Shown: one piece after another, positions 1,352 to 46,471 of the stretch
Layout: each line of letters starts with the position of its first letter
How positions within the stretch are numbered: position 1 is the stretch's first letter
Position numbers and translations under genes: made by a program
Virus record (IMG/VR): IMGVR_UViG_3300035696_000005
Span: 96,001-160,000 of that record
Length of the DNA stretch: 64,000 nucleotides
Reading direction: 5' to 3' (one strand)
From: a virus
The notes under the pieces: generated by a model
Databases searched by the model: none
The model's input: only the letters and a program-made list of their open reading frames with translations
Told to the model about the DNA's origin: nothing

Positions 1352-2155
1352 TCAAACCTCGATTCCGTCCGTGTTCTTACACAGACTGTTGGTTGTAAAA
1401 AGTTTGATCCCGGCTTTTTCAAGGACCTCACGGCCCTTACTGAAGATACCGTGAGTGACAAACAGATTGATGGTATGGCTGTTCTCGTACTTTTGATTCA
1501 GTGTCTTTGCAACACTTAAGAAAGTTGCTCCGCCGTCGCAAAGGTCATCGAGAATAAGAAAACGCGTGTTGGGCTTACACTCGTAGCTTTCTCCGTCAAC
1601 CATCCTATGCCCAGTGATGTTGCCATTCGATTGTTCACGCACCTTTTCAAATGTCATTGTCGGTATGCCACAGTACCTACCCTCTCTTGAAGTGATTGGT
1701 AAATATCTTTTCCTTGCCCCGTAGTCTGGGAACACAATGAAATGCGGCGATAGCAGAGTAACGGTGGCGTGGTGAATGAAATACATTTCTTCGTTTCTGA
1801 AGTTTCTGATCAAATCCCGAGTTAGACTTGGGTTATGAACGTCAACCGACGTGACCTCCGCAAACTCAAGACCATTGATCAGATCAGCGAAAACTCTGAG
1901 ATTGAAAGTTGAATCGTTCGACACACCCTTGTCCTGCCTGCCGTACGGTAAGAACGGAACATGAAGATGAATCGCGGCATCCTTTCTTAGGAGCTTTCTC
2001 AGGCTGTAGAGATCGATAATTTCCCTCTCAGCCTCAAATCGCCAGTCAATCTGAAGCACTTTTGTATTAAGAATTTTATCAGGAAGATTCCAGACCTGAG
2101 AGGTTCCGTCTGGAAAGATCGTAGGCTTAATCAGATGCCCGTTTACTTTAATCAT
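1352..2155 (-). CDS. prs: Ribose-phosphate pyrophosphokinase-like (Prs/Adps)
   Basis: FPDG, PFLPYGRQDK, VDVHN, LILDDLCDGGATF, LFVTHGIFSKG motifs. Confidence 0.9.
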   Translation of the reverse strand: MIKVNGHLIKPTIFPDGTSQVWNLPDKILNTKVLQIDWRFEAEREIIDLYSLRKLLRKDAAIHLHVPFLPYGRQDKGVSNDSTFNLRVFADLINGLEFAEVTSVDVHNPSLTRDLIRNFRNEEMYFIHHATVTLLSPHFIVFPDYGARKRYLPITSREGRYCGIPTMTFEKVREQSNGNITGHRMVDGESYECKPNTRFLILDDLCDGGATFLSVAKTLNQKYENSHTINLFVTHGIFSKGREVLEKAGIKLFTTNSLCKNTDGIEV

Positions 2156-2197
2156 AAAAGTCTCCTTCTAACTTCTTATACCCTCAAAATGGGTAAA

Positions 2198-2227
2198 TAA
2201 AACCGGGGTGCGTTCTGCACCCCGGTT
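2198..2227 (-). terminator. Intrinsic terminator
   Basis: AACCGGGGTGC/GCACCCCGGTT stem with U-rich tail on minus strand after the 2232 ORF. Confidence 0.7.
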
Positions 2228-2231
2228 GAGC

Positions 2232-2738
2232 TTAGCTATGGTTAACCGCAGCACTCTTGTCGATGTAGGCGTGAAGACCGCTCTCACATTGGTCATTACC
2301 AGGATTGAACGGATGATGCGGAGTGTGCCAACGCTTCAGCTTCCACCTGAATTTGTTGTTTCCACGTTTATTCTTCCGAACCACTGACTCAAACGTGTGA
2401 AGTGGACAAAACTTCTTAGACACTACAGGTCCCGTCTGGTAGGCGTATTCAGCGCCCACAACGTAGGCTTCGGACACACGAAGCTTATCAAACCTATTGA
2501 CTCCGTTTCTTCTAGCAGCATCTCCTGGGACAAAAAGCGTTAGCACAACATCCCTACTGCCGTTGTACTCACCTCTTTTGAAGAACACCTCACGAACTTT
2601 CTTGTAGCAGATGAACGGTTTACCGATATCAGGAATCTTCGTGAGGGTTTGATTTTCCTCAGCTAGACTTCTGATCAAAGCCTCGTTCGGTGCTTTTTTG
2701 AAATAGTCTGAGATTTTTTGAAATAGTCTTTTGATCAT
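2232..2738 (-). CDS. DUF5758-like phage protein (paralogue 1)
   Basis: KKV...VLTLFVPGDAARRNG...KLRVSEAYVV pattern; clearly similar to 2750-3226. Confidence 0.55.
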   Translation of the reverse strand: MIKRLFQKISDYFKKAPNEALIRSLAEENQTLTKIPDIGKPFICYKKVREVFFKRGEYNGSRDVVLTLFVPGDAARRNGVNRFDKLRVSEAYVVGAEYAYQTGPVVSKKFCPLHTFESVVRKNKRGNNKFRWKLKRWHTPHHPFNPGNDQCESGLHAYIDKSAAVNHS

Positions 2739-2749
2739 GAGCGGTTCTC

Positions 2750-3226
2750 CTAGAGGTAATACTTCTTAGCCGAGGCTTTGGAAATAAATGCATGAAGCCC
2801 GTGAGAGCACTGACCAGCCGCTGCCGCAAACTTATACGCCGGTTTATGCCATTTACCAACCACCCAGCGAAATTTCCCCTCCGCAGATTTCTTTTTCTTG
2901 TTCAGTTGGGAATAAATGATATTGTAGGTGTGGCCGGGGAAGAATTCTTTCTCACTGATCGGGTTTCCACTGCGGCTTTCTGCTTTGACAACAAACGCGG
3001 CAGAAACTCTGAGCTTGTCGTGGCGACTGTTACCATTCCTTCTCTTTGCATCCGCAGGAACATAAAGAGTCAGGATCGCAACATTTTTTCTGCGCCCATT
3101 CTGATCAGGGACAATCACTTTCTTAAATGCGATGAAATCCTTACCTACCTGTGGCACCCGTGCCATTCTTTCATTTTCTTTAAGCAACTTCTTAATCAGT
3201 GCGCTGCTTGGTTTTTTTCTTGTCAT
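2750..3226 (-). CDS. DUF5758-like phage protein (paralogue 2)
   Basis: FKKV...ILTLYVPADAKRRNG...KLRVSAAFVV; SD AAGGAG. Confidence 0.55.
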   Translation of the reverse strand: MTRKKPSSALIKKLLKENERMARVPQVGKDFIAFKKVIVPDQNGRRKNVAILTLYVPADAKRRNGNSRHDKLRVSAAFVVKAESRSGNPISEKEFFPGHTYNIIYSQLNKKKKSAEGKFRWVVGKWHKPAYKFAAAAGQCSHGLHAFISKASAKKYYL

Positions 3227-3299
3227 CTGAATCTCCTTTTTTAAATCAGTGAGGTGAGGAACTCAGCTCATGTACACTCGCACACTAGTTCCCCACCAC

Positions 3300-3378
3300 C
3301 AAAGACATCCGTGGTTTCGCTCCACAGACTACCGGTACAACAATTCCCGGAGTGCTTACCTCTTTACACCAATGTCAC
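3300..3378 (-). ncRNA. Degenerate tRNA-like cloverleaf
   Basis: GACAT/ATGTC acceptor-like stem, GTG..GGTAAG..CAC D-like arm, CCGG/CCGG arm, GTGG-AGCGAAA-CCAC T-like arm; no CCA. Confidence 0.4.
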
Positions 3379-3405
3379 CTGCCAGCCAGGATACGCCTGG
3401 CACGC

Positions 3406-3612
3406 CTATTGAAATCGCATGCTTCTACACTCGTATTCCTTATGCCCGTCTGTGATGCATTGACGAACGAGGCGTTCCCTCTCTGTCACGCTTTTGGGCG
3501 TGACGCTCAGAAACACAAGTCCCATCGACAGAAGAAACGTAAGGAATGCGATAACGACCAAAAGCTCTCCGATTTTCTTTTTCTTTTCAATTCTCGCCAA
3601 ATCCTCCCTCAT
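3406..3612 (-). CDS. Small membrane protein
   Basis: One hydrophobic helix; ATGA overlap with upstream vWA stop. Confidence 0.65.
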   Translation of the reverse strand: MREDLARIEKKKKIGELLVVIAFLTFLLSMGLVFLSVTPKSVTERERLVRQCITDGHKEYECRSMRFQ

Positions 3613-4694
3613 TCCCGGTCCCACCCTTCAACTTCATACAGAAACTTCGTCCTACCCAAGAGCTTGCGGGTGTAAGAAGTACTCTGGACGAACGGAGTAT
3701 ACTGCTCCAGGCTTGTCGGACGAATACGAACAGTTCCGTGTTCAGGCAAACCAAGAAGCTCACGAGCCCTGCGACCCGTGTACATATCGCCCGTTCTCTT
3801 ATCGAGAAGGACGATCTCCTTATGGGCTTGGATGTTTTCCGACTTCGTGAATTCATAGAAACCACGGCCCTTTACATAAGGAATGCCGTTTGCCTCAACG
3901 AATCCTTTGATCGTCGTATCGCTATCCACATCCATGACTTGGAAGCGCCCCGCAGGAACAGCAGAAAAATCAGCTGCCCCGAACGCAGTTCTTCCGCCGG
4001 AGCGATTCAGAAGCGTGTTAAACACACGCTCCATGCTTCGATTCATGCGGTGACTGCGAACGATTTCCTGCTCGAAGTTCTGGAGCTGTTCTTCACCCAC
4101 CTGACGGTAGCAGATCGCCATGATCATGTCCGTCACTTGAGAGAACTGGTCCAGGTTCAAGTGAAAGCCTCCGGTCTTCTCCGCAATCTCACGGTAGAAG
4201 CTTGTGGCATGACGATGGTTCAGTGCCTGAACGCCGTAGACATGGATGCCAGACTCCAAAAGAAGACCCAGCTCGTTTCTCCAGTTGATTTTCTTTTTGT
4301 TCTGACGGTCGGTAGGTCCGTGCGGAATGTCATCCCCGATCATCGCAAGGACCTTGGATTTGCCAGATGTCCAGGAGATATCGGTGCGTGCCTCGTGAAG
4401 GACGAGCTCATAGCATTCCTCAGAGTCGCCACCACCCGTTGCCTCCACTGTATCCACAAAGCGACAGATCGCACGGACATCGTCCGAGAGATCAAAATGC
4501 TTTGTGACATAAGTTGAGCCCGCGTCACAGTAATCCCCGTGAGCGATAATCCCAATACGGATATTGGGGATCTCCCGGAAAAGGCGGGTGACGTTTTCCT
4601 TCAGGGTTCGACGTACCTGAGTCAAGCATGGGTACATCGATCCTGTGGTATCGAACGAAAATACGACTTCAATGTTTTCAGTTGGCCTACTCAT
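3609..4694 (-). CDS. vWA-domain protein
   Basis: MIDAS DTTGSM, GGGDSEE, IGDDIPH; extra C-terminal domain. Confidence 0.85.
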   Translation of the reverse strand: MSRPTENIEVVFSFDTTGSMYPCLTQVRRTLKENVTRLFREIPNIRIGIIAHGDYCDAGSTYVTKHFDLSDDVRAICRFVDTVEATGGGDSEECYELVLHEARTDISWTSGKSKVLAMIGDDIPHGPTDRQNKKKINWRNELGLLLESGIHVYGVQALNHRHATSFYREIAEKTGGFHLNLDQFSQVTDMIMAICYRQVGEEQLQNFEQEIVRSHRMNRSMERVFNTLLNRSGGRTAFGAADFSAVPAGRFQVMDVDSDTTIKGFVEANGIPYVKGRGFYEFTKSENIQAHKEIVLLDKRTGDMYTGRRARELLGLPEHGTVRIRPTSLEQYTPFVQSTSYTRKLLGRTKFLYEVEGWDRE

Positions 4695-4962: not shown

Positions 4963-6174
4963 CTACAAATGAAATTCCCGAACATCCTTACGAGTCGGGC
5001 CATACGAAATTAAGCCACTTTCCGCATCAAGACTATCCAGAAGTAACTTCATGAAGTTTTCCACTGAAGTTGACTGAAGAGAACTGCTAACGTTAAAGCC
5101 GTTACCGACGTTACAGTTGTAGATGACTCCACGATCCCCTACCTGATCGGCGCAGGTGATTGCGTAGTGAGGGCGGGCTATAAGTCCTCCTCCCCTAAAC
5201 AAATCATCCATTACTCGGGCGGTTAGATAATCGAAGTCGATGATTCCGAATCTGAGATCCCCCTGATGGGCGTTCGTCACATTCGTTGTGTCAGAGGCTT
5301 TGTCGTACGGAAGCTTTTCCATCTCCTCAGGAAAGGGTCCAGCTCCGTGCCGAGTGACGTAAGTCCTTGTTACGTAGTAAACATCGATCGGGGTAGCGAT
5401 ACTCCGAGCCGCGAGCAACTTAGCCACATTTTTTAGACCCGTCTTCGACCTGGTAACATGTGGAAAGAAGGTATGATCTTCATCCAACATGAGTCCTTGA
5501 GCACCCTCAAACACAACGTTCTCGTGATCTAGCTCCAGATCCTCCCACTTGCAAATATTTGTGAGAAAAACCATCTTCTCGCAATCTCCAAGAAAGTTCT
5601 CAAGGAGCTGAGGATGGTTGAGATAAGGAAGCTTACTGTCCGAAATCTTCAGCTGATCCAATCGAGCAGGAACATACTTCTCTCGAATGTGCTTCAGCTT
5701 ATCCATAAGATCTTTTGAGAAAAGATCCTTAAAGCTTAAGGTGAAGTCGGGGTCCTGATTGCGGTGAACGGTCTCGTTAAAACCCATGCCGCAACTTCCG
5801 TGCTTCTTATCCCCCCGAGATTCCTCGGCTGCCTGGTTGATCATGATGTCAAAAGGAGTCGTAATAGGGCAGCGATGGTCGATGTAGGTGTTTGGAGCAA
5901 AGCCCATCGCAGACAGGACTTTAAGTTCCTCAACAAAGAAAATTGGGCATGCAACAAAATATTGGCTTAAGAAGGTTTCAGCTTTAGCCAGGGTACCTGA
6001 TCCGAAATGATGAAACACGTGGCGTTTTCCTTCCGGGGTAACAACGGTGTGCCCGGCTTGCGCTCCGCCATTGAAGCGAACAACCATAGAACTCGACTGA
6101 GACGAGAGATAGTCAGTGATTAATCCTTTGCCTTCGTCCCCGTAGTTTGCACCGATAACTGTTGAAATTTTCAT
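4963..6174 (-). CDS. purA: Adenylosuccinate synthetase-like protein (divergent PurA family)
   Basis: GANYGDEGKG, GGAQAGHT, FEGAQG, TRHGAGPFP. Confidence 0.85.
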   Translation of the reverse strand: MKISTVIGANYGDEGKGLITDYLSSQSSSMVVRFNGGAQAGHTVVTPEGKRHVFHHFGSGTLAKAETFLSQYFVACPIFFVEELKVLSAMGFAPNTYIDHRCPITTPFDIMINQAAEESRGDKKHGSCGMGFNETVHRNQDPDFTLSFKDLFSKDLMDKLKHIREKYVPARLDQLKISDSKLPYLNHPQLLENFLGDCEKMVFLTNICKWEDLELDHENVVFEGAQGLMLDEDHTFFPHVTRSKTGLKNVAKLLAARSIATPIDVYYVTRTYVTRHGAGPFPEEMEKLPYDKASDTTNVTNAHQGDLRFGIIDFDYLTARVMDDLFRGGGLIARPHYAITCADQVGDRGVIYNCNVGNGFNVSSSLQSTSVENFMKLLLDSLDAESGLISYGPTRKDVREFHL

Positions 6175-6446
6175 ACTAACTCCTTATGCCCGCAAGGTTC
6201 CCCGCAGGCGCAAAAACATCCGAGAGGGCCAAAGCCAATAACGGATCGATGGACGAACACAAAATCACCGTCAGACAGTTCAGCAGTCTTTGGTGTGGGT
6301 TCTCCATTTATCCCATAGCCCCAACAGGGATACTTGGTCATAGCCTGAGTGAATTCTGGAACTGCCGCTATAGCCTCACCCACGGTATTCGCACAAACGA
6401 CGTGTTTGTCCTTCCCAAGCATCTGCACTACGATGTTCTTAGCCAC
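6171..6446 (-). CDS. Ubiquitin-like (beta-grasp) protein with Cys-rich tail
   Basis: Aligns by eye to the 12412-12612 Ubl (MAK..Q.LG, TVG, NGEP, LSD..FV); ends VIGFGPLGCFCACGEPCGHKELV. Confidence 0.65.
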   Translation of the reverse strand: MAKNIVVQMLGKDKHVVCANTVGEAIAAVPEFTQAMTKYPCWGYGINGEPTPKTAELSDGDFVFVHRSVIGFGPLGCFCACGEPCGHKELV

Positions 6447-6645
6447 TTTTGTTTTCTACTGCTTTTTTATGGATGTCAGATCCGACGAACGTTTCCACAG
6501 AGCCAAAACAAGGCTCACCCCAGCCTTCGTCCATGCCGCGCTGGTCCTTTTCTGCTTCTTTTGCCGACAAAAACCACGACGGGAAAGCTGAGCCATCCCC
6601 ACCATTTTGAATTGAGTACCAGACAATTACTTTCTTGAGTGCCAT
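6439..6645 (-). CDS. Hypothetical protein
   Basis: SD GGAGG; overlaps next gene. Confidence 0.6.
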   Translation of the reverse strand: MALKKVIVWYSIQNGGDGSAFPSWFLSAKEAEKDQRGMDEGWGEPCFGSVETFVGSDIHKKAVENKSG

Positions 6646-6660
6646 GCTTCCTCCAAAATA

Positions 6661-6693
6661 AAAAATGCGGGCAAGGTTTCCCCTGCCCGCATC
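6661..6693 (-). terminator. Intrinsic terminator
   Basis: ATGCGGGCA/TGCCCGCAT stem followed by U-tract on minus strand. Confidence 0.65.
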
Positions 6694-6697
6694 AAAT

Positions 6698-7612
6698 TTA
6701 CAGGGACGCGGTTCCCGAGCCCCTACCTGCCGAAAGAGAACTTACGGCATTTCTTACAACTACTGCGGTGTTACCTTCCCAGCTTGAGGCAACATCGTCG
6801 TGATCGTGTCCTTCATTGACCTGAATGGCGCTGACGATCACTTCAGCAAGTTTAGTGTGATCCGCAAGACGGATCGCACGTTGCGGAAGAATTCGGTTCC
6901 AGTCTTGGAAAACCTGATCTGTTCTTCCGCGAGCATAACTACCTTCTTCCACAATAATGTGGAATACCTCATAGACCCGAGAGACTTCAGTGAGAAGCTC
7001 ACGTGCCGAAATATCGGTATGAGCATTATCACCAAAGAAGTTATTCAGGTCCCTGGCTCGAAGCATTGGGGTAGGCAGCTCGTCACCGATGGTGAAGAGA
7101 TAACCTTTCTTGCCCCGCTTCTCAACGCAGTCCGTACTGGTATGGCGAGCTCCCATGTACCAGGCAGCGATATAGGACTCGTAAGGATTCCCACCACCTC
7201 CGCCTTCCAGGTAGAACTTCTCCAGCTGCTGGGCGATCCTGAGATCGGCTTCAAACTGGGTTGCCTGGACAGGAGCACGGTCGCATTCCATATCACCGAT
7301 AGCCATGCACATAATGTGCGGATCAGTGACGGGTCTACGCTGGTAGATCTCCGATACCAGAGTTGGAACCCCTTTGCGAGCCATGTGATCTGAGATCATT
7401 CCCATTGATCCGGTAACGTCCTGAGCGATGATGATCGCTGTAGACTGCGGATTATCAGAGGAATCTCTGGATTCACGGACTCTGACGCCCTTCACATCCA
7501 GAGCGGCATCGATCCTCCGGCTGGTGAAAATCTCGTCCGTGGTCTTCGTTTCGTAGCTATTTGTCGTAGCGTAGGCTTCCCAATCCTTCGGATTAAACCT
7601 TCCTGATCCCAT
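6698..7612 (-). CDS. vWA-domain protein
   Basis: DVTGSMG MIDAS, GGGGNPYESY, FTIGDE. Confidence 0.85.
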   Translation of the reverse strand: MGSGRFNPKDWEAYATTNSYETKTTDEIFTSRRIDAALDVKGVRVRESRDSSDNPQSTAIIIAQDVTGSMGMISDHMARKGVPTLVSEIYQRRPVTDPHIMCMAIGDMECDRAPVQATQFEADLRIAQQLEKFYLEGGGGGNPYESYIAAWYMGARHTSTDCVEKRGKKGYLFTIGDELPTPMLRARDLNNFFGDNAHTDISARELLTEVSRVYEVFHIIVEEGSYARGRTDQVFQDWNRILPQRAIRLADHTKLAEVIVSAIQVNEGHDHDDVASSWEGNTAVVVRNAVSSLSAGRGSGTASL

Positions 7613-7614
7613 CG

Positions 7615-7782
7615 TTAGCTCTCCTTAGCAGGCGAATGACCGCCTTCGTTTTCCATTGCTTCAGCCGGGGTGGCTTCAGCGGGTGTGGCCTCGATAGCGG
7701 CAGGTGCTGCTTCAGCAGGCTTTGCCTCACCTTCCGGTGCCTTTGCATATTCTTCCATCGTTGTACTAGATACTCCGCCCAT
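7615..7782 (-). CDS. 55-aa acidic Ala/Pro/Glu-rich protein (not in ORF track)
   Basis: GGAG SD; MGGVSSTTMEEYAKAPEGEAKPAEAAPAAIEATPAEATPAEAMENEGGHSPAKES*. Confidence 0.65.
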   Translation of the reverse strand: MGGVSSTTMEEYAKAPEGEAKPAEAAPAAIEATPAEATPAEAMENEGGHSPAKES

Positions 7783-8065
7783 AAATTCTCCTATTGGTGA
7801 CTACGTTTTAAATCTACAAATAAAGAGAGGACACCGGGTCAAGGTCGGTGTCCTCTCCATCTTCTCGGGTCAGATTCCTGTCCGGCCCTTAACAGGCTCC
7901 TTTAAGGACAGCCGCCACTACCCTCCATTGGACTGACAGCCGGGCGACACTTCACAGAAAATCCCCCGTAATGGGATTTTGTTTTCTGTGGATAGGGTGA
8001 TGCTCGTATTACGCCGCCGAGAAAATACTTTTGCCCCAAAGACTTATACCCATATCTTGGGTATT

Positions 8066-8278
8066 TTAGAATCCCTTTCTGGTTGGAACCGACTGCTCAA
8101 TTCCCATACCGCTATTGGCTACTGTCTGAAGGTGCTTAGAACAAGATTCACAAAACCTATGCGACTTATCGGTCTTAATCATCTTGCCACCACACCATCC
8201 AAGACACGGTCTATATTTAACTCCCTTCTGTTTATGAGCAACATTTCTCGACATGTTCTTAGAGGTTTTAGAGCTCAT
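8066..8278 (-). CDS. Small Zn-ribbon-like protein
   Basis: CLGWC...FCESC. Confidence 0.55.
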   Translation of the reverse strand: MSSKTSKNMSRNVAHKQKGVKYRPCLGWCGGKMIKTDKSHRFCESCSKHLQTVANSGMGIEQSVPTRKGF

Positions 8279-8976
8279 CGAGGGGCTCCGGAAGTCAGTC
8301 CCTGAACAAACAGATCCATCACGTTGCGTCTCTGCGAGGGTGGAACGGGGAAGTGATCAAGAGCATTCTGAAATGCCGTAGCAACCGCTTCAGGACTGAG
8401 CCCAGGCGTTCTTGGGATTGTCGTTGGACCGCCTAGCGCACCGGTGACACGTGCCGCGAACTCCACCGCAGAAGTAGGTTCTCTAAAGAAGACTCTTTGT
8501 TCTTCGCTGCTGATACCCCACTCTTCGCGCTCATCGTTCCAGTAAGGTCCGCGATATTCTCTCTCCAACTTCTCAACCCAGTTGGCTGAATGACGTATCA
8601 AGGCCGACATACCCCCGCTAAAGCCACGGGAAAAGACAAGCGAGCCTCTCATTAGCTCTGGAAATGAGACACGGTTAACAATGTCGTAAATCTTTACGAC
8701 CATCATGTCAGCCGTTCCCATGACAATCTGCCTTTCGGCAATAATGTGGTTTTTGAAAATCAGTTCGGTAAACATATTCACCTCCGTAGCGGGTAATATT
8801 TGTCGAGCAACACTTTCGCCGAGCATATCCGGAAACATCAGCTCGTACATATCTCGGATATTAAACCCAGTAGTCGACTCAAACGGCTTTAAGAAAATAT
8901 CATCGAGAATAAGGTCTAGACCTTCAAGTCTTCTTCCACGCGATGAATTGGTCATCCTTAATGCTCCATTGGGCAA
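8275..8976 (-). CDS. Hypothetical protein downstream of E1
   Basis: 233-aa ORF overlapping E1 end; start uncertain. Confidence 0.6.
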   Translation of the reverse strand: MPNGALRMTNSSRGRRLEGLDLILDDIFLKPFESTTGFNIRDMYELMFPDMLGESVARQILPATEVNMFTELIFKNHIIAERQIVMGTADMMVVKIYDIVNRVSFPELMRGSLVFSRGFSGGMSALIRHSANWVEKLEREYRGPYWNDEREEWGISSEEQRVFFREPTSAVEFAARVTGALGGPTTIPRTPGLSPEAVATAFQNALDHFPVPPSQRRNVMDLFVQGLTSGAPR

Positions 8977-9598
8977 GCCTGAGATACTTCCCAGGACTTG
9001 TCACAAGATCTTTGACTGCCTTAGCTACCAGCCCAGACAGCATATTTGCGGTGTAAATTGTAGCTTTTGCCGTGCATCTCTCTTGGACCGCTGAATCGTC
9101 CGTATAGAGGGTCTTCTCATAACTCTCGATATCCCTCTCATCCATCGGGCTCATGACGTAAAGCAGTGCCGTCTCAGCCCCCATCCTAGGATCGATGATT
9201 GCCTTTGTGAACGGAGCCTGATTTTTGTGGTTCATCCAGATGCGCTTACGCACTTCCATTGAATCCACAGCCGAGATCACAATGCCTGGGAATGTGCCGC
9301 GCTCATAACGTTCATCGCGTGCAGCGATCTCAGTCTTGGTGAAATCAGCCACAAGCTTCTGAAGAGCAGTGACCTTCTTTGTTCCGATGTCGCTATAGCG
9401 ATAAAATTGGCTATTCATGTTCTCTTCTTCGATCTTATCGAAGTCGATAATAGTAATATCGCCGAAACCCATCTTAGCCAAAGCGAGAGCGGTGAATGAG
9501 CCAATGGCCCCTGCCCCAATGATCGTGATCTTTTCTCCTAACACTTCGAGGGGAATCAAATCCAACTGACGCGTCAAATTGACATTCTTAAGTTCCAT
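8924..9598 (-). CDS. ThiF/E1-like adenylating enzyme
   Basis: GAGAIGS, DFDKIEEEN, SQFY, K, VDS, IDPRMG; candidate catalytic Cys in ERCTAKAT; SD GGAGG before ATG 9598. Confidence 0.92.
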   Translation of the reverse strand: MELKNVNLTRQLDLIPLEVLGEKITIIGAGAIGSFTALALAKMGFGDITIIDFDKIEEENMNSQFYRYSDIGTKKVTALQKLVADFTKTEIAARDERYERGTFPGIVISAVDSMEVRKRIWMNHKNQAPFTKAIIDPRMGAETALLYVMSPMDERDIESYEKTLYTDDSAVQERCTAKATIYTANMLSGLVAKAVKDLVTSPGKYLRLAQWSIKDDQFIAWKKT

Positions 9599-9737
9599 AT
9601 TTCCTCCATAAAACCATTCTGTTGTGCAGATGTCTCCACAGAGCATGTCTCCTACGGACCAAATGACTGAGCCGCAATTTTTGCAATGCTCCTTCAAATG
9701 AATCCGTAGGAGAAATCTATCGAGTCTGCCGAGCTTC

Positions 9738-10514
9738 TTACCAACCACCCGAGTGGCCGTTTCTCATCGGCGGCCCTGCCTTGGGCGCGCCGATTGTTCG
9801 TCGTTCCTCCAAATACTCCTGAATTTCTTCAGGAGTCATGGGTGGAATCCGATCCTCGATCCCTGGACCATCATCCTCAACGGTGCGGCTTGGGTGGTGC
9901 GGAAGGAGAGGAAGCTGCCCACCTTCCCCACTTCTGAAGTCGCTTGAGCTTCTTCCGCTCTCGCTTGGATAGCGACTTTCCGACTTTCCCCAGGTGTAAG
10001 TCCTCATGAGATTAGTCACATTCTTCTCATAATCATCATCCCATTTCTTGACCGCTTCAGGATCAAGATACTGGATTTGCTGAGTAGGAATGTTATCGAT
10101 GAATCCCAAAGGAAGTGGGCTTACCATGCTCAATGCAGAGCGCATTTCATGCCTCTTATTGAATACGGTGGAAACAAACCAACCCCCTTGAGTGATCTTA
10201 TCGATTGTGTCGCGATCCGTTCCACTCCAGAAGACATCCATGTTGACGTGGCTATGCCACCACCAACGAAGATCTCCGGGAGTATCCTTAAGAAGGAACA
10301 TCGCCTTACCAACATCAGCACCCTCGATGTCGGTATGCGCTGAACCGTTCTTTTGAGGAAGAAGAATCGCATCGATCACCGTGATCCTTCCGTCCTTGTA
10401 GGTGATCTTACCGAGACCGGAAACTTCATAGCTCGACTTGTTCACCCAGTGCATGATCTTATGGTAGACCATGCTCTCAATCATAATGTGCGTTCCAACT
10501 ACTTCATTTGCCAT
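9738..10514 (-). CDS. JAB/MPN+ metalloprotease
   Basis: YEVSG Glu plus complete JAMM motif H-S-H-x7-S-x2-D (HSHVNMDVFWSGTD). Confidence 0.92.
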   Translation of the reverse strand: MANEVVGTHIMIESMVYHKIMHWVNKSSYEVSGLGKITYKDGRITVIDAILLPQKNGSAHTDIEGADVGKAMFLLKDTPGDLRWWWHSHVNMDVFWSGTDRDTIDKITQGGWFVSTVFNKRHEMRSALSMVSPLPLGFIDNIPTQQIQYLDPEAVKKWDDDYEKNVTNLMRTYTWGKSESRYPSESGRSSSDFRSGEGGQLPLLPHHPSRTVEDDGPGIEDRIPPMTPEEIQEYLEERRTIGAPKAGPPMRNGHSGGW

Positions 10515-10529
10515 GAATGATTCCTTTCA

Positions 10530-11885
10530 TTAATCACGGTTGTCTTCACGACGTTCAGGTGCTGCGCTCATAAACGCCTCTACGTTAGCAGAGGGTGTTA
10601 GAGGAGGATTCAGGTTCGGTCCAACAAAGATTGGATTAAGAGCTCCCCTGAGCCTACTAAATTCCTCCTGTCTACGAGCTGACTCACGAGACACCCTGCA
10701 GATATCGCACTCACACCCATCCATTGCGGGTTGAGTTGAATCTGTCGGGTGACCTGGCGGAGGTGTTACCCTATCCAATGAGATTCCCCTAAGAGCCTGA
10801 AGGAGGGCTTCGTTTTCGGAGAATGACCCGATCGATACCTCTACGGGACTGGTAAGACCCTCTAGAATACTAATCCCAGGATGCCTCGCGTAACCCATTA
10901 CTGGCGGTGCCGGACGAACTTCCGTTGCAGCAGCAGCCGCACGAGCTCTCCCGGCCTCCATCTCAGGGGGAAGGGGCGGCGGAGCATCTTTAGGAGGTGC
11001 GTCTCTCTCTGCCTTTTTCTGAAATTCAGCCAATGATCTGTAGGGGTTTCCATCGTTATAGTTCGTTAGAACGCTAGCGAGGAGCCTCAGAACATCGGCA
11101 ATTTCTCCTTTCGGTAGTTTTTGAGCCACAGTAGTTGCGGCAGTTCCCCAACAGATGTTTCCGGAAGGGTTAATGTGTGGGTGATAGTAGCCTCCCTCAA
11201 GTTCGATGTTCCCTTCATACTTAAGAACGCTTACCGTCATAGCACGAAGATTGATGATTGCGCGAACCTTCCCAAAGTTCACGCGAAGATCAATGCTTGC
11301 AGCCGCGTTCCGTTGTGTTAGAAGAATATCGTTCCTGGTAGTGAGTTCCAGATTCTCACCTGTCAGCTGGTGAAAATCCCAGAAGTTCTCCTGAAGAATC
11401 TGGGCAATCTGACCCGAAGCCGTTGATTCGCGACGCTCCAAAGCCATGATGTTTACTTCAACCCTGTGGGCTTCCGTAAGGTCGGCGTTGGCTCGCTCGA
11501 ACGAACGAATCGCGTTTGAGATATAGGAATCTCTGTTCTTCCTAAGATTCAAGATCTCCCGATCAGTCTGAGTTCTGGTCAGCGCGTCGATTTGATCACT
11601 GATCCGCTGCTCTAGAGCAAAGACCTGAGCCGGGGTCTTAGTCTTGATTTCCTCAACCTTCGCAAAAAATCTTTTGTTGATCTCCGTCTTATCGGTAATG
11701 AGTTCATTGCCCTTACCAGCACCAAAGACCTGAAGAAGATCCCAGGGCTCCATTTTGGTGCCAGTCTGGTTGGCAAGAAGCTCGATGTATTGAACTGCCA
11801 GGATGTGTGCCTTTTGCTTTTCGGCACCCATCCTGGAGAACGGCTTATAGCCTGAACGAATAACTTCACGTAGATTCATGACCAT
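10530..11885 (-). CDS. Coiled-coil + prokaryotic E2-like protein
   Basis: YHPHINPSGNICWG matches the E2 HPx(I)xxxGxIC signature with catalytic Cys; N-terminal heptad-like region. Confidence 0.85.
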   Translation of the reverse strand: MVMNLREVIRSGYKPFSRMGAEKQKAHILAVQYIELLANQTGTKMEPWDLLQVFGAGKGNELITDKTEINKRFFAKVEEIKTKTPAQVFALEQRISDQIDALTRTQTDREILNLRKNRDSYISNAIRSFERANADLTEAHRVEVNIMALERRESTASGQIAQILQENFWDFHQLTGENLELTTRNDILLTQRNAAASIDLRVNFGKVRAIINLRAMTVSVLKYEGNIELEGGYYHPHINPSGNICWGTAATTVAQKLPKGEIADVLRLLASVLTNYNDGNPYRSLAEFQKKAERDAPPKDAPPPLPPEMEAGRARAAAAATEVRPAPPVMGYARHPGISILEGLTSPVEVSIGSFSENEALLQALRGISLDRVTPPPGHPTDSTQPAMDGCECDICRVSRESARRQEEFSRLRGALNPIFVGPNLNPPLTPSANVEAFMSAAPERREDNRD

Positions 11886-12343
11886 CTCCCCACTTTCTCG
11901 GCATAGTATTCATCGCCATTACTGTCGAAGTAAGTTAGTTCCAAGGAGTCAGGAGCTCTTGGAATATCGTACCCACCGTAGTTGCAGTGCCCAAGGTCAA
12001 GCAAATAGTCCCTAGCAGCGTCCGTCATCGCCTTTAGATCTTTTTGCTCTTCCTCGGAAATATTAAACTTTTTAGCCACTGCTGCCACTAGAACTGGGTT
12101 ATTAGCAAACTTTTTGGCAGTATCATCCAACAGCTCGTCGCAGTCATCGCCACCAAGACCACGGCTGGCAACCTTAATTTGCTCCCTGTAAAGCTTCATC
12201 AGCTCTTCGATCTCGCCCTCATACTTATCCGAATATACAAGGCCGGTCTTGTATCCGTCCGCATCACCCTCCATGAAGGTAATGGCAAGACGATACTGAT
12301 TTTTTCGGCAAGCCTGCTTAAGTTTTAATTTAGAAACGTCCAT
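11876..12343 (-). CDS. Hypothetical protein within the Ubl operon
   Basis: 155-aa ORF between Ubl and E2, overlapping E2 start. Confidence 0.65.
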   Translation of the reverse strand: MDVSKLKLKQACRKNQYRLAITFMEGDADGYKTGLVYSDKYEGEIEELMKLYREQIKVASRGLGGDDCDELLDDTAKKFANNPVLVAAVAKKFNISEEEQKDLKAMTDAARDYLLDLGHCNYGGYDIPRAPDSLELTYFDSNGDEYYAEKVGRWS

Positions 12344-12355
12344 GCACGCGCCCCC

Positions 12356-12392
12356 TAAAAAATAAAAGGGACGCCTGAAACCAGGCGTCCCT
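12356..12392 (-). terminator. Intrinsic terminator directly after Ubl
   Basis: AGGGACGCCTG/CAGGCGTCCCT 11-bp stem + U-tract. Confidence 0.75.
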
Positions 12393-12411
12393 CAATTCCC
12401 TTCGACCTAAA

Positions 12412-12612
12412 TTAGATCTTGCCGCCCTTGACTGCCGGGCTCAGCGAGACGAATTCGAAGTCAGACAGCTGGTAGCTATCTTCAGCCGGTTCGCCGTTGA
12501 CGGTGGCGGTGTGGGTCGCTACACCGAGGCGAGACTTAACCTGGCCTACGGTCCCGCAATCATCGAGAACCTTCGGGTCGCCGCCCAGGACTTGTGCAGT
12601 TACTTTTGCCAT
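12412..12612 (-). CDS. Ubiquitin-like protein (ThiS/MoaD-like beta-grasp)
   Basis: 66 aa, TVNGEP, ends AVKGG-KI; SD AAGGAG. Confidence 0.88.
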   Translation of the reverse strand: MAKVTAQVLGGDPKVLDDCGTVGQVKSRLGVATHTATVNGEPAEDSYQLSDFEFVSLSPAVKGGKI

Positions 12613-12700
12613 TTTGTTTCTCCTTCTTTCTTGTACAAGTTACAACGAGAGATCTATCCCTCGCACCAGTCTTATATCTCACACTAGGAAGAATTTGCCT

Positions 12701-12737
12701 AGCTAAAAAAAGACCCCGCTAAGTACGCGGGGTCTTT
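12701..12737 (-). terminator. Intrinsic terminator with TTTTTTAGCT tail
   Basis: AAAGACCCCGC/GCGGGGTCTTT stem. Confidence 0.75.
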
Positions 12738-12739
12738 GA

Positions 12740-13102
12740 CTAAAGCTCCTCCCAGTGTTTCTCGATGATGTCAGCGATTTCGTTGAAAGTATGCCCCTCA
12801 TCATTTAGCCTGGTGAGAACAAAACGATTGTTTCCTTCCGTGAACTCCCCGTAACTACTCTTAAGATCACACTGTTTCATATGATCTGGTGCTAGGACAC
12901 CAAATGGATTAGTGACACCAGGTCCTTCGTGCGCATATTTGTAAGCATCCGTGCCTTTGTCCATCGGCTTAATTCCGTTGATATCCAAGAGAACCCCCAG
13001 ACAACAGAACTTTCCGTCAAGACTTTGCAGAAAAGATTTTCCCTGTTCGTATTTCTTAGAGCGAAGGGCTGTGACCCACTTATCTGCGTTTTCTTTTTTC
13101 AC
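12740..13102 (-). CDS. Conserved phage hypothetical (paralogue 2)
   Basis: ADKWVTALRS..YEQG...FCCLGVLLDING...LTRLNDEG.TFNEIADIIEKHWEEL. Confidence 0.7.
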   Translation of the reverse strand: MKKENADKWVTALRSKKYEQGKSFLQSLDGKFCCLGVLLDINGIKPMDKGTDAYKYAHEGPGVTNPFGVLAPDHMKQCDLKSSYGEFTEGNNRFVLTRLNDEGHTFNEIADIIEKHWEEL

Positions 13103-13449
13103 AGAGCCTCCCAATGCTTCTCGATGATATCGGCAATTTGGTTGAAGGTCTTCCCGCTGTCGTTCAGTCTGGTAAGGAAGGTCGCCTCCCCATCATCTCC
13201 GACAAATTCCCCGTGTGCGCTTCTAATGCCACACTTTTTACGAATATCTAGGTCTACGATTGCCCCGTATGAGTTATCCCCAAATGTGTTTCTGGCATCT
13301 TGTGTCTTCTTGGATTTAAACCCGTTAATATCAAGAAGAACCCCAAGGCAGCAGAACTCGCCTTTGCCGTTCTTCAGTTCTCCGGTACCTTGCTTATAGT
13401 TGCCGCTCCGAAGAGCGGCAACCCACTTATCAGCAACTTCCTTATTCAT
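13099..13449 (-). CDS. Conserved phage hypothetical (paralogue 1)
   Basis: ADKWVAALRSGNYKQG...FCCLGVLLDING...LTRLNDSGKTFNQIADIIEKHWEAL. Confidence 0.7.
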   Translation of the reverse strand: MNKEVADKWVAALRSGNYKQGTGELKNGKGEFCCLGVLLDINGFKSKKTQDARNTFGDNSYGAIVDLDIRKKCGIRSAHGEFVGDDGEATFLTRLNDSGKTFNQIADIIEKHWEAL

Positions 13450-44700: not shown

Positions 44701-46335
44701 TTACAACTCAACCGAATTAACAACTGATTCGACATCCATTCCAAGCGTACCTACAGCTCCGAATAAGGCTGGAGTGAGCGTGTTATACACAATCATGGAA
44801 TCACAGTTTGGAACTGCCGACCAAGGATTTGAAGCTTGGTTGATCAGAATCAGCTTTGAACGTGAATTGACATTCTTTTGATACTTCAAGAATGCCTGAT
44901 CCAGCGGTGTTCCCTGATTTTGGGCTTCATCGGTGATGATGATGAACTTATCCACATGCTTATCTTCAGCCAACGCTTTTTCGATAATCATGGCCGGGTT
45001 GGTATAGCCAGCAGCATAAGGATATTCAAGTACCATCTTCATGTCGGTCTTACGGTTTCCAGTCCAGCGAGGAAATGCTGCAGCACCACGAGATGCCCCA
45101 ACGGAGCTTCCTTCGAAATGAAGCCTGCTATTTTCAAACCAGCTAAACCGAACGTCTCTAGCTTTACCATAGAATGCGTAAGCAAAAACGTTAGCAACTA
45201 GATACGACCATTGGTCAGAGTTTCCAAGACCACCGCGCATTGAGCCTGAGCTGTCAACACTGACTTCAATAACGTCATCAGCGATCCCATCGATTGGAGT
45301 GTCGAAAGAAGAAGCTAAAGCTTCAGCCTGGATTCCCTTGATCTGTGGATGACTCGTATGAACGTAGCTCTTGACGATGTCCAGCGGATTCATCCTTCCG
45401 CGCACAATAGCTTCAGGAGAAAGCATCTCACGATACTTCTCGATCGCACCGGTGAGCTCGAATACGCCGTGCTCGATGAATGAACGAGTATTCAAAAGAA
45501 GACCTTGAGTACCGCAGCTCATCATCAATGCAAACCACCAGCGTGGGTTGCTGCAAGGGACTGGCTTAAGCGTATCAAACGGAAGCTTATTCTCCAGGAT
45601 GATTCGACCCACAGCATCCAAATCGAAGTTCGGACGCTGCGCCATCGAGAGCACCTGCTCGTATGCCTTCTGCTGTGTTCCGTAAGGAACACCCTTACGG
45701 GTTCCTTCCTGCCCAGGGAACACGTAATCAAGCAGCGGGTTATTCCAGTCCGGGTGAGTCAAGCGAAGGAGGATTCGCATGTCATCCTTGTACTGGATCG
45801 TATAGCGCTCAAGCTTCTCAGGGCTCCAGCTCTTCATGACCTTACCGACCCAGCCTTGCTGGCGGTAGCCGAGACCCTTCGTGTACTTCTTTTGCATCTC
45901 GACATATTCCCGAAGCTGCTTCGGGTGATAAGTCGAAAGAAGATCCACAATGACGTCCCTGTAGTCAGCACAGAAGTCCTTGTTTGCGGACAGCGCAATA
46001 ACGCCAAGCTTAGGCGACATCTTGATATTGCTTCGACGAGCAAGCACAAGCGCCTTAAGCAGAAACAGAGGGTTGGTCTGTGCTGCTTCAGAGAACCTCT
46101 TTAGCATCTCGGAGGCTTGCTTATCTGCATCGCTGTAATACGTATTTCCAATCACACCGCACTGAGACATACGGAAAATATCACGAGCAAACGAAGGAGT
46201 GAATGCCGCGTATCCATGAGGATTGGTTGTGGTCGGAGTTTTTCCGCTTGCGTGCTTTTCCATAAGCTTTCCGCCACGGCTTGAAGCAGGCTTTGGTTCC
46301 CGGGTATTTCGAAATGCGTCGACGTTGTTTGCCAT
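44701..46335 (-). CDS. rsr: Ro60/TROVE-domain RNA-binding protein (Rsr-like)
   Basis: TTTNPHGYAAF, NTYY, FLLKALVLAR...MSPKL TROVE helices; C-terminal vWA VSVDSSGSM...FIIITDE; SD GGGAG before ATG 46335. Confidence 0.85.
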   Translation of the reverse strand: MANNVDAFRNTREPKPASSRGGKLMEKHASGKTPTTTNPHGYAAFTPSFARDIFRMSQCGVIGNTYYSDADKQASEMLKRFSEAAQTNPLFLLKALVLARRSNIKMSPKLGVIALSANKDFCADYRDVIVDLLSTYHPKQLREYVEMQKKYTKGLGYRQQGWVGKVMKSWSPEKLERYTIQYKDDMRILLRLTHPDWNNPLLDYVFPGQEGTRKGVPYGTQQKAYEQVLSMAQRPNFDLDAVGRIILENKLPFDTLKPVPCSNPRWWFALMMSCGTQGLLLNTRSFIEHGVFELTGAIEKYREMLSPEAIVRGRMNPLDIVKSYVHTSHPQIKGIQAEALASSFDTPIDGIADDVIEVSVDSSGSMRGGLGNSDQWSYLVANVFAYAFYGKARDVRFSWFENSRLHFEGSSVGASRGAAAFPRWTGNRKTDMKMVLEYPYAAGYTNPAMIIEKALAEDKHVDKFIIITDEAQNQGTPLDQAFLKYQKNVNSRSKLILINQASNPWSAVPNCDSMIVYNTLTPALFGAVGTLGMDVESVVNSVEL

Positions 46336-46350
46336 AAATCTCCCTACATA

Positions 46351-46396
46351 AAAAAAGAGAGGGACATAGCTTGCACAATGCAAGGTGGCCCCTCTC
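46351..46396 (-). terminator. Terminator between Y-RNA-like array and Ro60
   Basis: AGAGAGGG/CCCTCTCT outer stem followed by U6. Confidence 0.65.
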
Positions 46397-46408
46397 TGAG
46401 TTGAAAGA

Positions 46409-46471
46409 GCCACTGTGAATTGTAGAACCGGTTTTTCGTTTCAAGTGATGAACGGTTCCACGAAGAGTGGC
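46409..46471 (-). ncRNA. Y-RNA-like unit 4
   Basis: GCCACT/AGTGGC outer stem; GTGGAACCG/CGGTTCTAC inner stem; AACCGTTCATC motif. Confidence 0.7.

Follow-up and report, generated by a model that had tools for sequence, protein, structure and literature searches.

A cassette in a large tailed phage encodes a ubiquitin-like protein, an E2-like enzyme, a JAB protease and a minimal E1, and probably forms a conjugation cascade owned by the virus

Introduction

The DNA analysed here (the window, 64,000 nucleotides) comprises bases 96,001–160,000 of the IMG/VR virus record IMGVR_UViG_3300035696_000005. On its minus strand, between positions 8924 and 12612, it carries a cassette encoding a ubiquitin-like protein (Ubl), a conjugating (E2-like) enzyme, a JAB/JAMM metalloprotease and a small activating (E1) enzyme. 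The record is 182,359 bp long, is estimated by CheckV to be 100% complete and encodes a large terminase: it is the genome of a large tailed phage. We class the cassette with the prokaryotic Ubl conjugation cascades, among which it is distinguished by its viral ownership, by a classical-type E2 with a novel N-terminal domain and by a minimal E1. Chance is far from accounting for it, as the gene order repeats in dozens of unrelated contigs with the catalytic residues kept. We consider it probable that these genes specify a phage-owned E1–E2 thioester cascade with JAB maturation, expressed with early or replication genes for the benefit of the phage; its target and biological purpose are treated below as candidate readings.

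An earlier reading of the same sequence (the original prediction) had proposed five minus-strand open reading frames in this region, had quoted characteristic motifs in the Ubl, E2 and JAB proteins and had suggested that the phage owns the complete machinery. The five frames and the quoted motifs are all present. Phage ownership of a complete Ubl/E2/JAB/E1 set is supported by the protein folds and profile alignments described here and by the conservation of both catalytic residues and gene order.

Results

The E2-like protein and its UBC-type catalytic domain

The E2-like conjugating enzyme (451 aa; 10530..11885, on the minus strand, as are all window features below) consists of a helical N-terminal domain, a UBC domain and a low-complexity tail, as delineated from a 17-sequence alignment and from an AlphaFold2 (AF2) model with a predicted local distance difference test (pLDDT) score of 76, which exceeds 90 over most of residues 100–280. 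Failure of the E2-like domain to model on the UBC fold would have counted against the original prediction, and residues 150–296 (10998..11438) do model on it: they form a helix, a beta-meander and three helices, with 6 strands versus 4 in the UBC fold, and VIA-align superimposed them on UbcH8 with a Z-score of 8.1 and a root-mean-square deviation of 3.3 Å over 116 residues. The best 50 Foldseek matches of the full-length model were all E2 enzymes, with weak E-values, and a second look with VIA-align likewise returned E2s for 50 of the 50 matches listed. In a wide search independent of Foldseek, the top 9 matches were E2s (Z 7.0–7.6) and the rest were coiled coils matching the long helix, not the UBC domain.

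The putative active site, His235-Pro-His237 followed by Cys245 (11151..11183), is kept in 17/17 sequences. In the alignment of these 17 homologues, H235-P-H237, C245, G247 and an L..YN...P segment are invariant, and the pattern H-[PS]-H-x5-12-C-x-G recurs in 32 of the 40 cassette E2s. When the family profile was aligned on Ubc2/UbcH5 with HMMER (E 0.005), HPH...C fell on the HPN...C of the classical enzymes and the L..YN..NPY segment on their L..PN..SP. The phage protein thus has the HPN-type triplet and, about 8–10 residues on, the Cys of classical E2s, the third position of the triplet being His and not Asn. Against Pfam UQ_con (PF00179) it scored 13.1 bits (E 0.076), the gathering threshold being 27; at E ≤ 0.1 no other Pfam family and no PADLOC model matched. 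As the UQ_con score is below the cut-off, the protein is, on the evidence of its model, a divergent member of the UBC superfamily and not a member of the curated Pfam family.

Two further regions flank the catalytic domain. The N-terminal domain (residues 1–149; 11439..11885) has a conserved head (Y33, W48, F54, N70, F73-F74) followed by a single helix of 85 residues. Of the 150 best E2 family members, nearly all have a UBC domain that likewise sets in at about residue 150, which makes the N-domain a trait of the family; structure searches with residues 1–150 returned only coiled-coil or helical look-alikes. The tail carries a His/Cys3 motif (GHPxDST ... GCxCxxC; 10698..10754), found in 6 close homologues and modelled with a pLDDT of 86–91 in an otherwise disordered segment, which is a candidate zinc knuckle that may bind metal.

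The Ubl and its short C-terminal tail

The first gene of the cassette (12412..12612), preceded by an AAGGAG ribosome-binding site, encodes a 66-aa beta-grasp protein that ends in VKGG and then Lys-Ile. Its AF2 model, built with 42 homologues, is a beta-grasp with a pLDDT of 88.8 and a predicted template modelling score of 0.73. The best solved structures in Foldseek were Mth1743, ubiquitin, MoaD, TtuB, NEDD8 and ThiS (probability 1.0; template modelling scores of 0.6–0.72), and the family profile aligned over its full length with archaeal SAMP2, finishing on the Gly-Gly. By fold and by C-terminal Gly-Gly the protein belongs with the ubiquitin/ThiS/MoaD beta-grasp modifiers.

Gly63-Gly64 and the two-residue tail lie at 12415..12426, and the Lys-Ile is predicted to be removed, in view of how the tail varies among homologues. 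We found 225 Ubl homologues. About 74 of 120 end in VKGG, mostly with 0–2 (rarely more) variable residues beyond it (Cys, Lys-Ile, Val-Arg and others), and most of the remaining 46 end in VKGA, so that VKG-G/A is near-universal among the 120. The proposal in the original prediction that residues past the GG need trimming fits this family pattern. Judged from the sequences, a conserved Gly with a short non-conserved tail gives these proteins the look of processed Ubl precursors, not of ThiS or MoaD.

A second Ubl paralogue is encoded elsewhere in the window (91 aa; 6171–6446), with 33% identity to the cassette Ubl (BLASTP E 2e-6; 1e-6 with the Ubl hidden Markov model, HMM). It ends in ...VIGFG followed by a Cys-rich tail of 17 residues, and the 3' end of its gene shares 4 nt with the start of the PurA-like gene (4963–6174). 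The cassette E1 and JAB may act on this paralogue as a further substrate, or it may be a carrier unrelated to them.

A minimal E1 with one invariant cysteine

The gene at 8924..9598 encodes a minimal ThiF-type E1 of 224 aa with a single adenylation domain. It matched Pfam ThiF (PF00899) at 3.8e-21, with 75.8 bits against a cut-off of 28.1 (75.3 bits in the genome search), and has the Gly-rich nucleotide-binding loop that goes with this domain (GAGAIGS; 9497..9517), in which G-x-G-x-x-G is invariant. Its profile hit UBA3 and UBA5 at 1e-10 and, more weakly, Cap2 (PDB, 2e-5) and BubCD; a profile of the C-terminal half had no match among PDB sequences. The original prediction had started this gene at 9748 (8924–9748). 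From the sequence, the start is most likely Met51, at 9598: a GGAGG lies upstream of it and the relatives are 221–226 aa long. The 50 in-frame codons 5' of this start (9599..9748; CxxC...CxxxC) are not conserved and are probably a non-coding spacer. We also considered an N-terminal zinc-finger isoform encoded by this stretch as a conserved feature and rejected it: the frame has stops in the related locus L005, and the JAB and E1 genes abut in loci L003 and L006.

In the Met51 numbering, the candidate thioester cysteine is Cys175 (9074..9076). The original prediction had singled out one candidate Cys in this protein, and its case is now stronger: 44/44 cassette E1s have a Cys at this position, Flavobacterium phage FpV4 and a crAss-like phage among them, and it lies in the same MAFFT column as Cys187 of Escherichia coli MoeB. 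This column corresponds to the place in the crossover loop where ThiF has Cys184 and E1 enzymes have their catalytic cysteine; by sequence alignment, the phage E1 thus has a crossover-loop Cys. The phage E1s do not have the two CxxC zinc pairs of MoeB (C172/C175 and C244/C247).

These resemblances bear on the alternative that the Ubl and E1 are a ThiS/MoaD/TtuB-like thiocarboxylate pair serving cofactor synthesis or tRNA or DNA thio-modification, with the "E2" and the JAB as accessories. The best NCBIfam matches of the E1 are indeed ThiF models, all far under their cut-offs, and its Cys shares the column of MoeB Cys187; relatives of the Ubl match Pfam ThiS (one tested relative weakly), and some homologues are labelled ThiS by their source, the window's own Ubl having no Pfam match. 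Several observations oppose it: next to the pair there is always a protein of UBC fold whose Cys is invariant, tails block the C-terminus of the Ubl precursors, and the E1 is without the MoeB CxxC zinc motifs. In addition, the original prediction had noted no sulfur-pathway context around the cassette, and this holds for the whole 182-kb genome, in which searches for ThiG, MoaE, rhodanese and PP-loop proteins (PF05690, PF02391, PF00581 and PF01171), run with positive controls, gave no match, although host enzymes could supply these activities. We therefore regard a sulfur-carrier role as very improbable.

The JAB protease

Between the E2 and E1 genes, a 258-aa JAB/JAMM metalloprotease is encoded (9738..10514), with a catalytic N-terminal half and a variable C-terminal half. 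The JAMM motif H87-x-H89-x7-S97-x-x-D100 lies at 10215..10256 and the catalytic Glu30 at 10425–10427; E30, H87, H89, S97 and D100 are invariant in the 6/6 sequences aligned, so that the JAMM catalytic Glu and zinc site are both in place. The HxHx7SxxD pattern is found in 43/44 cassette JABs, and in 44/44 with relaxed spacing. The family profile matched a solved Rpn11-like JAMM protein of Caldiarchaeum (6fjv) across the motif, at E 0.0025. The score against Pfam Prok-JAB was 13.7 bits, under the gathering threshold of 25. At E ≤ 0.1 the JAB had sub-threshold Pfam matches only (Prok-JAB and NUFIP1) and no PADLOC model, and no NlpC/P60 match was obtained with Pfam. Taken together, the Ubl, E2 and JAB have no Pfam match above cut-off and no PHROG, NCBIfam or PADLOC match.

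In bacteria, Ubl conjugation acts in anti-phage defence, and the JAB proteases Cap3 and BilC reverse it (10.1101/2023.09.04.556158). A phage might accordingly use the cassette for counter-defence only, the JAB stripping the conjugates made by Bil operons or by type II CBASS, the anti-phage signalling system that is based on cyclic oligonucleotides, with the Ubl, E1 and E2 as decoys or poisons of the host cascade. Counter-defence-like genes (NAPRTase, Macro) do occur in related loci. The strict conservation of the E1 and E2 catalytic cysteines and the cognate tailed Ubl favour productive conjugation instead; the cassette has no detectable similarity to Cap3 or BilC models, and nothing links its distribution to hosts bearing Bil or CBASS. 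We judge this explanation improbable.

Hairpins and expression signals

The original prediction had placed a terminator at 12701–12737, upstream of the Ubl gene. A terminator-like hairpin is found there at 12709..12737, with an 11-bp stem including 7 GC pairs and a T-run, and closes the preceding transcription unit. A TATAAG motif had also been reported at 12671–12676. The motif is present; the idea that it recurs above chance was not borne out, as GATATAAG occurs 2 times in the window versus 1.28 expected. TATAAG was consequently dropped as a recurring promoter motif, its longer version being no commoner than chance, and a sigma-70-type scan gave nothing convincing.

A second terminator-like hairpin lies directly 3' of the Ubl gene (12366..12393): it begins 18 nt past the Ubl stop codon, between the Ubl and the next gene, and has a 12-bp GC-rich stem with 8 GC pairs and a T-run. 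Loci L003 and L006 have hairpins of other sequence at the same position. Using one uniform criterion, a hairpin and T-run within 90 nt of the gene end, we found such a signal 3' of 14/23 Ubl genes versus 3/40 E2, 4/44 JAB and 9/66 E1 genes (7–14% at the non-Ubl junctions). The post-Ubl hairpin fits an attenuator that would leave the Ubl substrate in excess, with read-through giving catalytic amounts of the enzymes.

Synteny and distribution of the cassette

The order Ubl-E2-JAB-E1 is kept in close relatives from Logan, JGI and IMG/VR contigs. The original prediction had called for a survey of operon conservation across phage genomes. For IMG/VR, 32 loci were collected by an E1-profile search and scanned with HMMs built here; 27 of them have at least 3 kb upstream of the E1 gene and could be assessed. 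E2, JAB and E1 are collinear on one strand in 22 of these 27 loci, and a Ubl was detected in 13 of the 22 collinear ones with a Ubl HMM that is narrow. Among 1.84 billion 50%-identity representatives, the E2-domain profile retrieved 2,958 clusters at E ≤ 1e-3 and 888 at E ≤ 1e-10; ten sampled members of the E2 family were all unnamed and metagenomic. Among GenBank phages, a set that possibly does not cover this phage's own or near records, megablast and tblastn gave no match to either the region or the E2.

Contigs carrying the cassette are often 35–47 kb long with a terminase nearby, and others measure 100–200 kb. The window encodes replication and nucleotide-metabolism functions, namely an archaeo-eukaryotic primase (AEP), a helicase of the SNF2 type, an SMC-like ATPase and a PurA-like enzyme; the SMC-like ATPase, primase, helicase and PurA-like genes are neighbours of the cassette, whose surroundings also include recombination genes.

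Copies were also found on contigs of metagenome-assembled genomes (MAGs) assigned to Planctomycetota, Anaerolineales, a deltaproteobacterium, Romboutsia and a "Promethearchaeota" bin. On two Planctomycetota MAG contigs, the E2-JAB-E1 cassette lies 1–4 kb from a tyrosine integrase (L015, 8323–9450; L016, 11277–12401) and adjoins cellular genes (AcrB/HlyD efflux, histidine kinase). An integrase and cellular genes beside the cassette mark the edge of an integrated element, and Planctomycetota are possible hosts of this phage group. In the samples examined, the cassette is far commoner in viral contigs than in cellular contexts.

The integrase-adjacent copies make a role in protecting the lysogen a serious rival to a role in infection. 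In such a role the phage or prophage would exclude superinfection, tagging the structural proteins of competitors as Bil does, or would mark host proteins to abort the infection. The four activities are identical to those of Bil operons (10.1101/2023.09.26.559546; 10.1101/2023.09.04.556158); the site 1–4 kb from a tyrosine integrase in the Planctomycetota MAGs is a usual one for genes that benefit a lysogen; and some relatives of about 12–47 kb carry helix-turn-helix repressor-like and RecT genes. On the other side, the cassette sits among early/replication genes of large, apparently virulent phages, and more distant JAB-E1 versions are present in phages of the crAss-like and FpV4-like groups. 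None of the Ubl, E2 and JAB is matched by a PADLOC defence model, Bil has other E2 and E1 architectures, and a system for tagging tail proteins would, short of high specificity, put the virions of its own carrier at risk. On balance we think a defence role unlikely, while giving it more weight than any other alternative considered here.

Variants of the cassette were noted in individual loci. The IMG/VR locus L058 (a 105-kb contig) has an E2-JAB-E1 set (1366–4579) followed by a second JAB-E1 pair (6307–7666). In L050 (5021–7927), Ubl and JAB genes precede a 668-aa E1, a possible fusion, and L040 has an extra E2-like gene 3' of the E1 (7702–8454). In a group of ~42-kb phages, 700–830 nt without called genes follow the E1 (8313–9144 in L004, 9364–10050 in L009), with patches conserved between both; this stretch may specify a non-coding RNA or contain a gene that was not called, and that of L004 gave no Rfam match above noise.

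Flanking genes and the variable slot

The conserved co-oriented unit runs on past the E1 through two genes, to position 8066. The first (8275..8976) encodes a conserved 233-aa protein, here called Y, which shows 37–39% identity to the post-E1 genes of L003 and L006 and has no Pfam, PHROG, NCBIfam or PADLOC match. The second (8066..8278) encodes a 70-aa Zn-ribbon protein (CLGxCG ... CxxC), with four Cys invariant in the window, L003 and L006 and HMM matches of 2e-41 to 6e-36 in these three. The closest relatives thus keep a ~200-aa protein and a four-Cys Zn-ribbon of 66–70 aa 3' of the E1. Just upstream of the cassette lie two tandem paralogous genes of ~120 aa (phrog_18067; 12740–13114 and 13099–13449); DUF8296 genes stand at the matching upstream place in L006 and L009, a conserved neighbour. 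At 32 kb from the cassette (44701–46413), the window encodes a protein of 570 aa in which Pfam recognises a vWA domain of the Ro60 type (5e-7).

The slot between the Ubl and E2 genes holds a 155-aa protein in the window (11876..12343), whose gene end overlaps the E2 start. The original prediction had counted this gene as a component of the cassette, a view that we abandon: it is an orphan insertion and not a conserved member. A search of 5.8 billion proteins yielded one homologue of its product, encoded amid unrelated genes; the product also has weak PHROG matches of unknown function and no useful match in the Atlas search. In the relatives, the slot is empty (L002 and L006) or holds a second, short E2 paralogue (L003 and L005). 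We also asked whether the 155-aa protein is a degenerate E2 and rejected this, as it has no similarity to the short paralogue.

The tandem E2 paralogues of these close relatives (L003, 5111–6004; L005, 4144–5001) stand with the short one (285–297 aa, without the long tail) first and the long one second. Both keep HPH...C, and the arrangement suggests that a single E1 supplies two E2s, each with targets of its own.

Discussion

From the Ubl and E2 folds, the catalytic motifs and their conservation, the synteny, the genomic context and the lack of sulfur partners, we infer a course of chemical steps, an E1 dimer, a mode of target selection and a purpose. The Ubl would be made in excess, the post-Ubl hairpin attenuating read-through to the enzyme genes. 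The JAB would then cut off Lys-Ile and expose Gly64. The E1, probably a homodimer like ThiF, MoeB and UBA5, would adenylate Gly64 and take up the Ubl as a thioester on Cys175, from which it would be passed on to Cys245 of the UBC-fold E2. Transfer onto target lysines could proceed by E2 aminolysis without an E3 ligase, as the cassette contains no RING or HECT E3. Targets would be chosen by the E2 N-domain and its variable Cys/His tail, possibly aided by the 233-aa and Zn-ribbon proteins, and the JAB may also undo conjugates. The original prediction had let the long E2 coiled coil take the place of an E3, and had named the modification of host proteins and the poisoning or reversal of Bil/CBASS conjugation as purposes; all of these are conjectures.

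Several points weigh against such a cascade, or against its working for the phage. The E1 is without a separate Cys domain and without a ubiquitin-fold domain, which bears on how it could dock the E2. The structural Z-score of about 8 for the UBC fold is only moderate, and the modelled fold concerns a single domain in a protein of 451 aa; a His stands in the E2 at the position of the classical HPN Asn; and the Pfam scores of both the E2 and the JAB are under the curated cut-offs. No target, E3 or reader was found. Finally, the integrase-adjacent Planctomycetota copies fit a lysogen-benefit (defence) role as well.

We nevertheless favour a cascade that the phage uses for its own ends, most likely the modification of host or phage proteins to its benefit during infection. 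The setting among early and replication genes in large, apparently virulent phages and the prevalence in viral contigs argue for such an own-benefit role. Prokaryotic Ubl-E1-E2-deubiquitinase systems have recently been shown to be anti-phage defences (Bil, type II CBASS), and a conserved, widespread phage module turns round the ownership that one would expect. The prediction that follows is a new layer in the biology of phages, in which proteins of the host or the virus are covalently tagged in the course of infection. This family is both large and unannotated, and many "thiamine biosynthesis" labels in phage genomes could be corrected. A 224-aa E1 working with a classical-type E2 and no E3 would also be an attractive minimal system for studying E1-to-E2 transfer, target choice and the origin of the eukaryotic cascade.

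More tentatively, the cassette may represent a very large and nearly uncharacterised virus-borne family of complete Ubl cascades (at least 2,958 E2 clusters at 50% identity), with E2s nearer to classical eukaryotic UBC proteins (upstream His-Pro-x, L..YN..P) than are those of Bil or Cap2, and used offensively to tag host or phage proteins. We hold this wider proposal to be possible and clearly short of probable. If it is true, phages and bacteria both wield protein "ubiquitination" as a weapon in their conflict, and it is plausible that phages served the ancestors of the classical E2 enzymes as a reservoir or vehicle.

Comparison with known systems

Only a distant version of the cassette was seen in cultured phages. 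FpV4-like Flavobacterium phages and crAss-like phages (Kehishuvirus, Kolpuevirus), the latter cultured in some cases, carry a distant pair of JAB and short E1 in their replication module, as in Flavobacterium phage FpV4 (L008, 1616–5627) and in bajarodcaudo virus 1, a crAss-like genome from a faecal metagenome (L010, 1517–5648). These E1s have the same invariant Cys as the phage protein described here but only 26–33% identity to it. Most of the records name them "thiamine biosynthesis protein ThiF"; that of bajarodcaudo virus 1 has "E1 enzyme family protein". The adjacent JAB keeps HxHx7SxxD (hhalign probability 86%; HMM E 4e-5 and 1e-4). In FpV4, gp53 (289 aa) has a Ubl-like N-terminal segment ending in ...SGG, fused to a long C-terminal extension. 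Its gp52, a protein of ~420 aa in the E2 position, was considered as an E2 and set aside: hhalign found nothing, and it is not detectably E2-like.

No description of a phage-encoded Ubl-E2-JAB-E1 cassette was found by full-text search, subscription-only papers being outside its reach, and an earlier description is possible; a survey of jumbo phages mentions ubiquitin only in passing (PMC7824862). The only other phage-borne association of a Ubl with a JAB that we found described is TAPI/TAPK of lambda and T1 (PMC1779556). It differs in having no E1 or E2, in belonging to a tail module, where the Ubl stands beside a JAB-NlpC/P60 protein, and in that its Ubl forms one domain within a larger protein; the cassette described here has a full E1–E2 cascade and lies in an early region with replication-type neighbours.

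The archaeal system of SAMP, UbaA and HvJAMM1 and the Thermus system of TtuB and TtuC share with the phage cassette a small ThiS/MoaD-like Ubl with a Gly-Gly end, a minimal ThiF-type E1 and a JAMM protease. They are E2-less and double as sulfur carriers, whereas the phage cassette has a UBC-fold E2 with an invariant Cys. The eukaryote-like operon of the archaeon Caldiarchaeum subterraneum (ubiquitin, E1, E2, a small RING E3 and an Rpn11-like JAMM protein; PMC3082918, PMC5654768) is alike in its separate classical-type E2 and its compactness, and no solved structure matches the phage JAB better than its JAMM protein (6fjv, as above). The phage cassette differs from it in having no RING E3, a much smaller E1, a Ubl whose sequence is ThiS/SAMP-like rather than ubiquitin-like, and a viral carrier.

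Type II CBASS has in common with the cassette a JAB partner and an E1 adenylation domain of similar sequence: PADLOC E1-E2 models match the phage E1 at 1e-13 over ~70 residues, and Cap2 in the PDB matches as given above. Only this Rossmann core of the E1 matches Cap2 models; Cap2 is an E2-E1 fusion, whereas the phage encodes its E2 and E1 in two genes, on either side of the JAB gene. The modifier here is a beta-grasp Ubl, where CBASS uses a CD-NTase as substrate, and neither a CD-NTase nor its effector is adjacent: Pfam identified no nucleotidyltransferase in the cassette and its four neighbours (~2 kb), the region to which the search, not a genome-wide one, was confined.

The closest likeness is to Bil, whose operons encode a Ubl, an E2, a JAB and an E1, the latter (BilD) being a multi-domain protein (IAD, AAD and CYS domains), and in whose type II the Ubl BilA bears a short non-conserved tail after the conserved Gly that the JAB BilC cuts off (10.1101/2023.09.26.559546). 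Bil types I and II correspond to classes 6d and 6c, whose E2s are without the classical His or have it downstream of the Cys (PMC1779556). The phage cassette resembles Bil in having all four components as separate, syntenic genes, a tail-trimmed Ubl, no E3 and high mobility. It departs from Bil in the E2, which keeps an upstream His-Pro-x (here His-Pro-His) and a conserved helical N-domain of ~150 aa, in the 224-aa E1 with its single adenylation domain versus the multi-domain BilD, in its gene order Ubl-E2-JAB-E1, and in its setting, which is that of phage early/replication genes and not of cellular defence islands. The cassette thus works like Bil and yet lies outside Bil by its E2 and E1 architecture; it is neither CBASS, nor of the SAMP/TtuB type, nor TAPI/TAPK.

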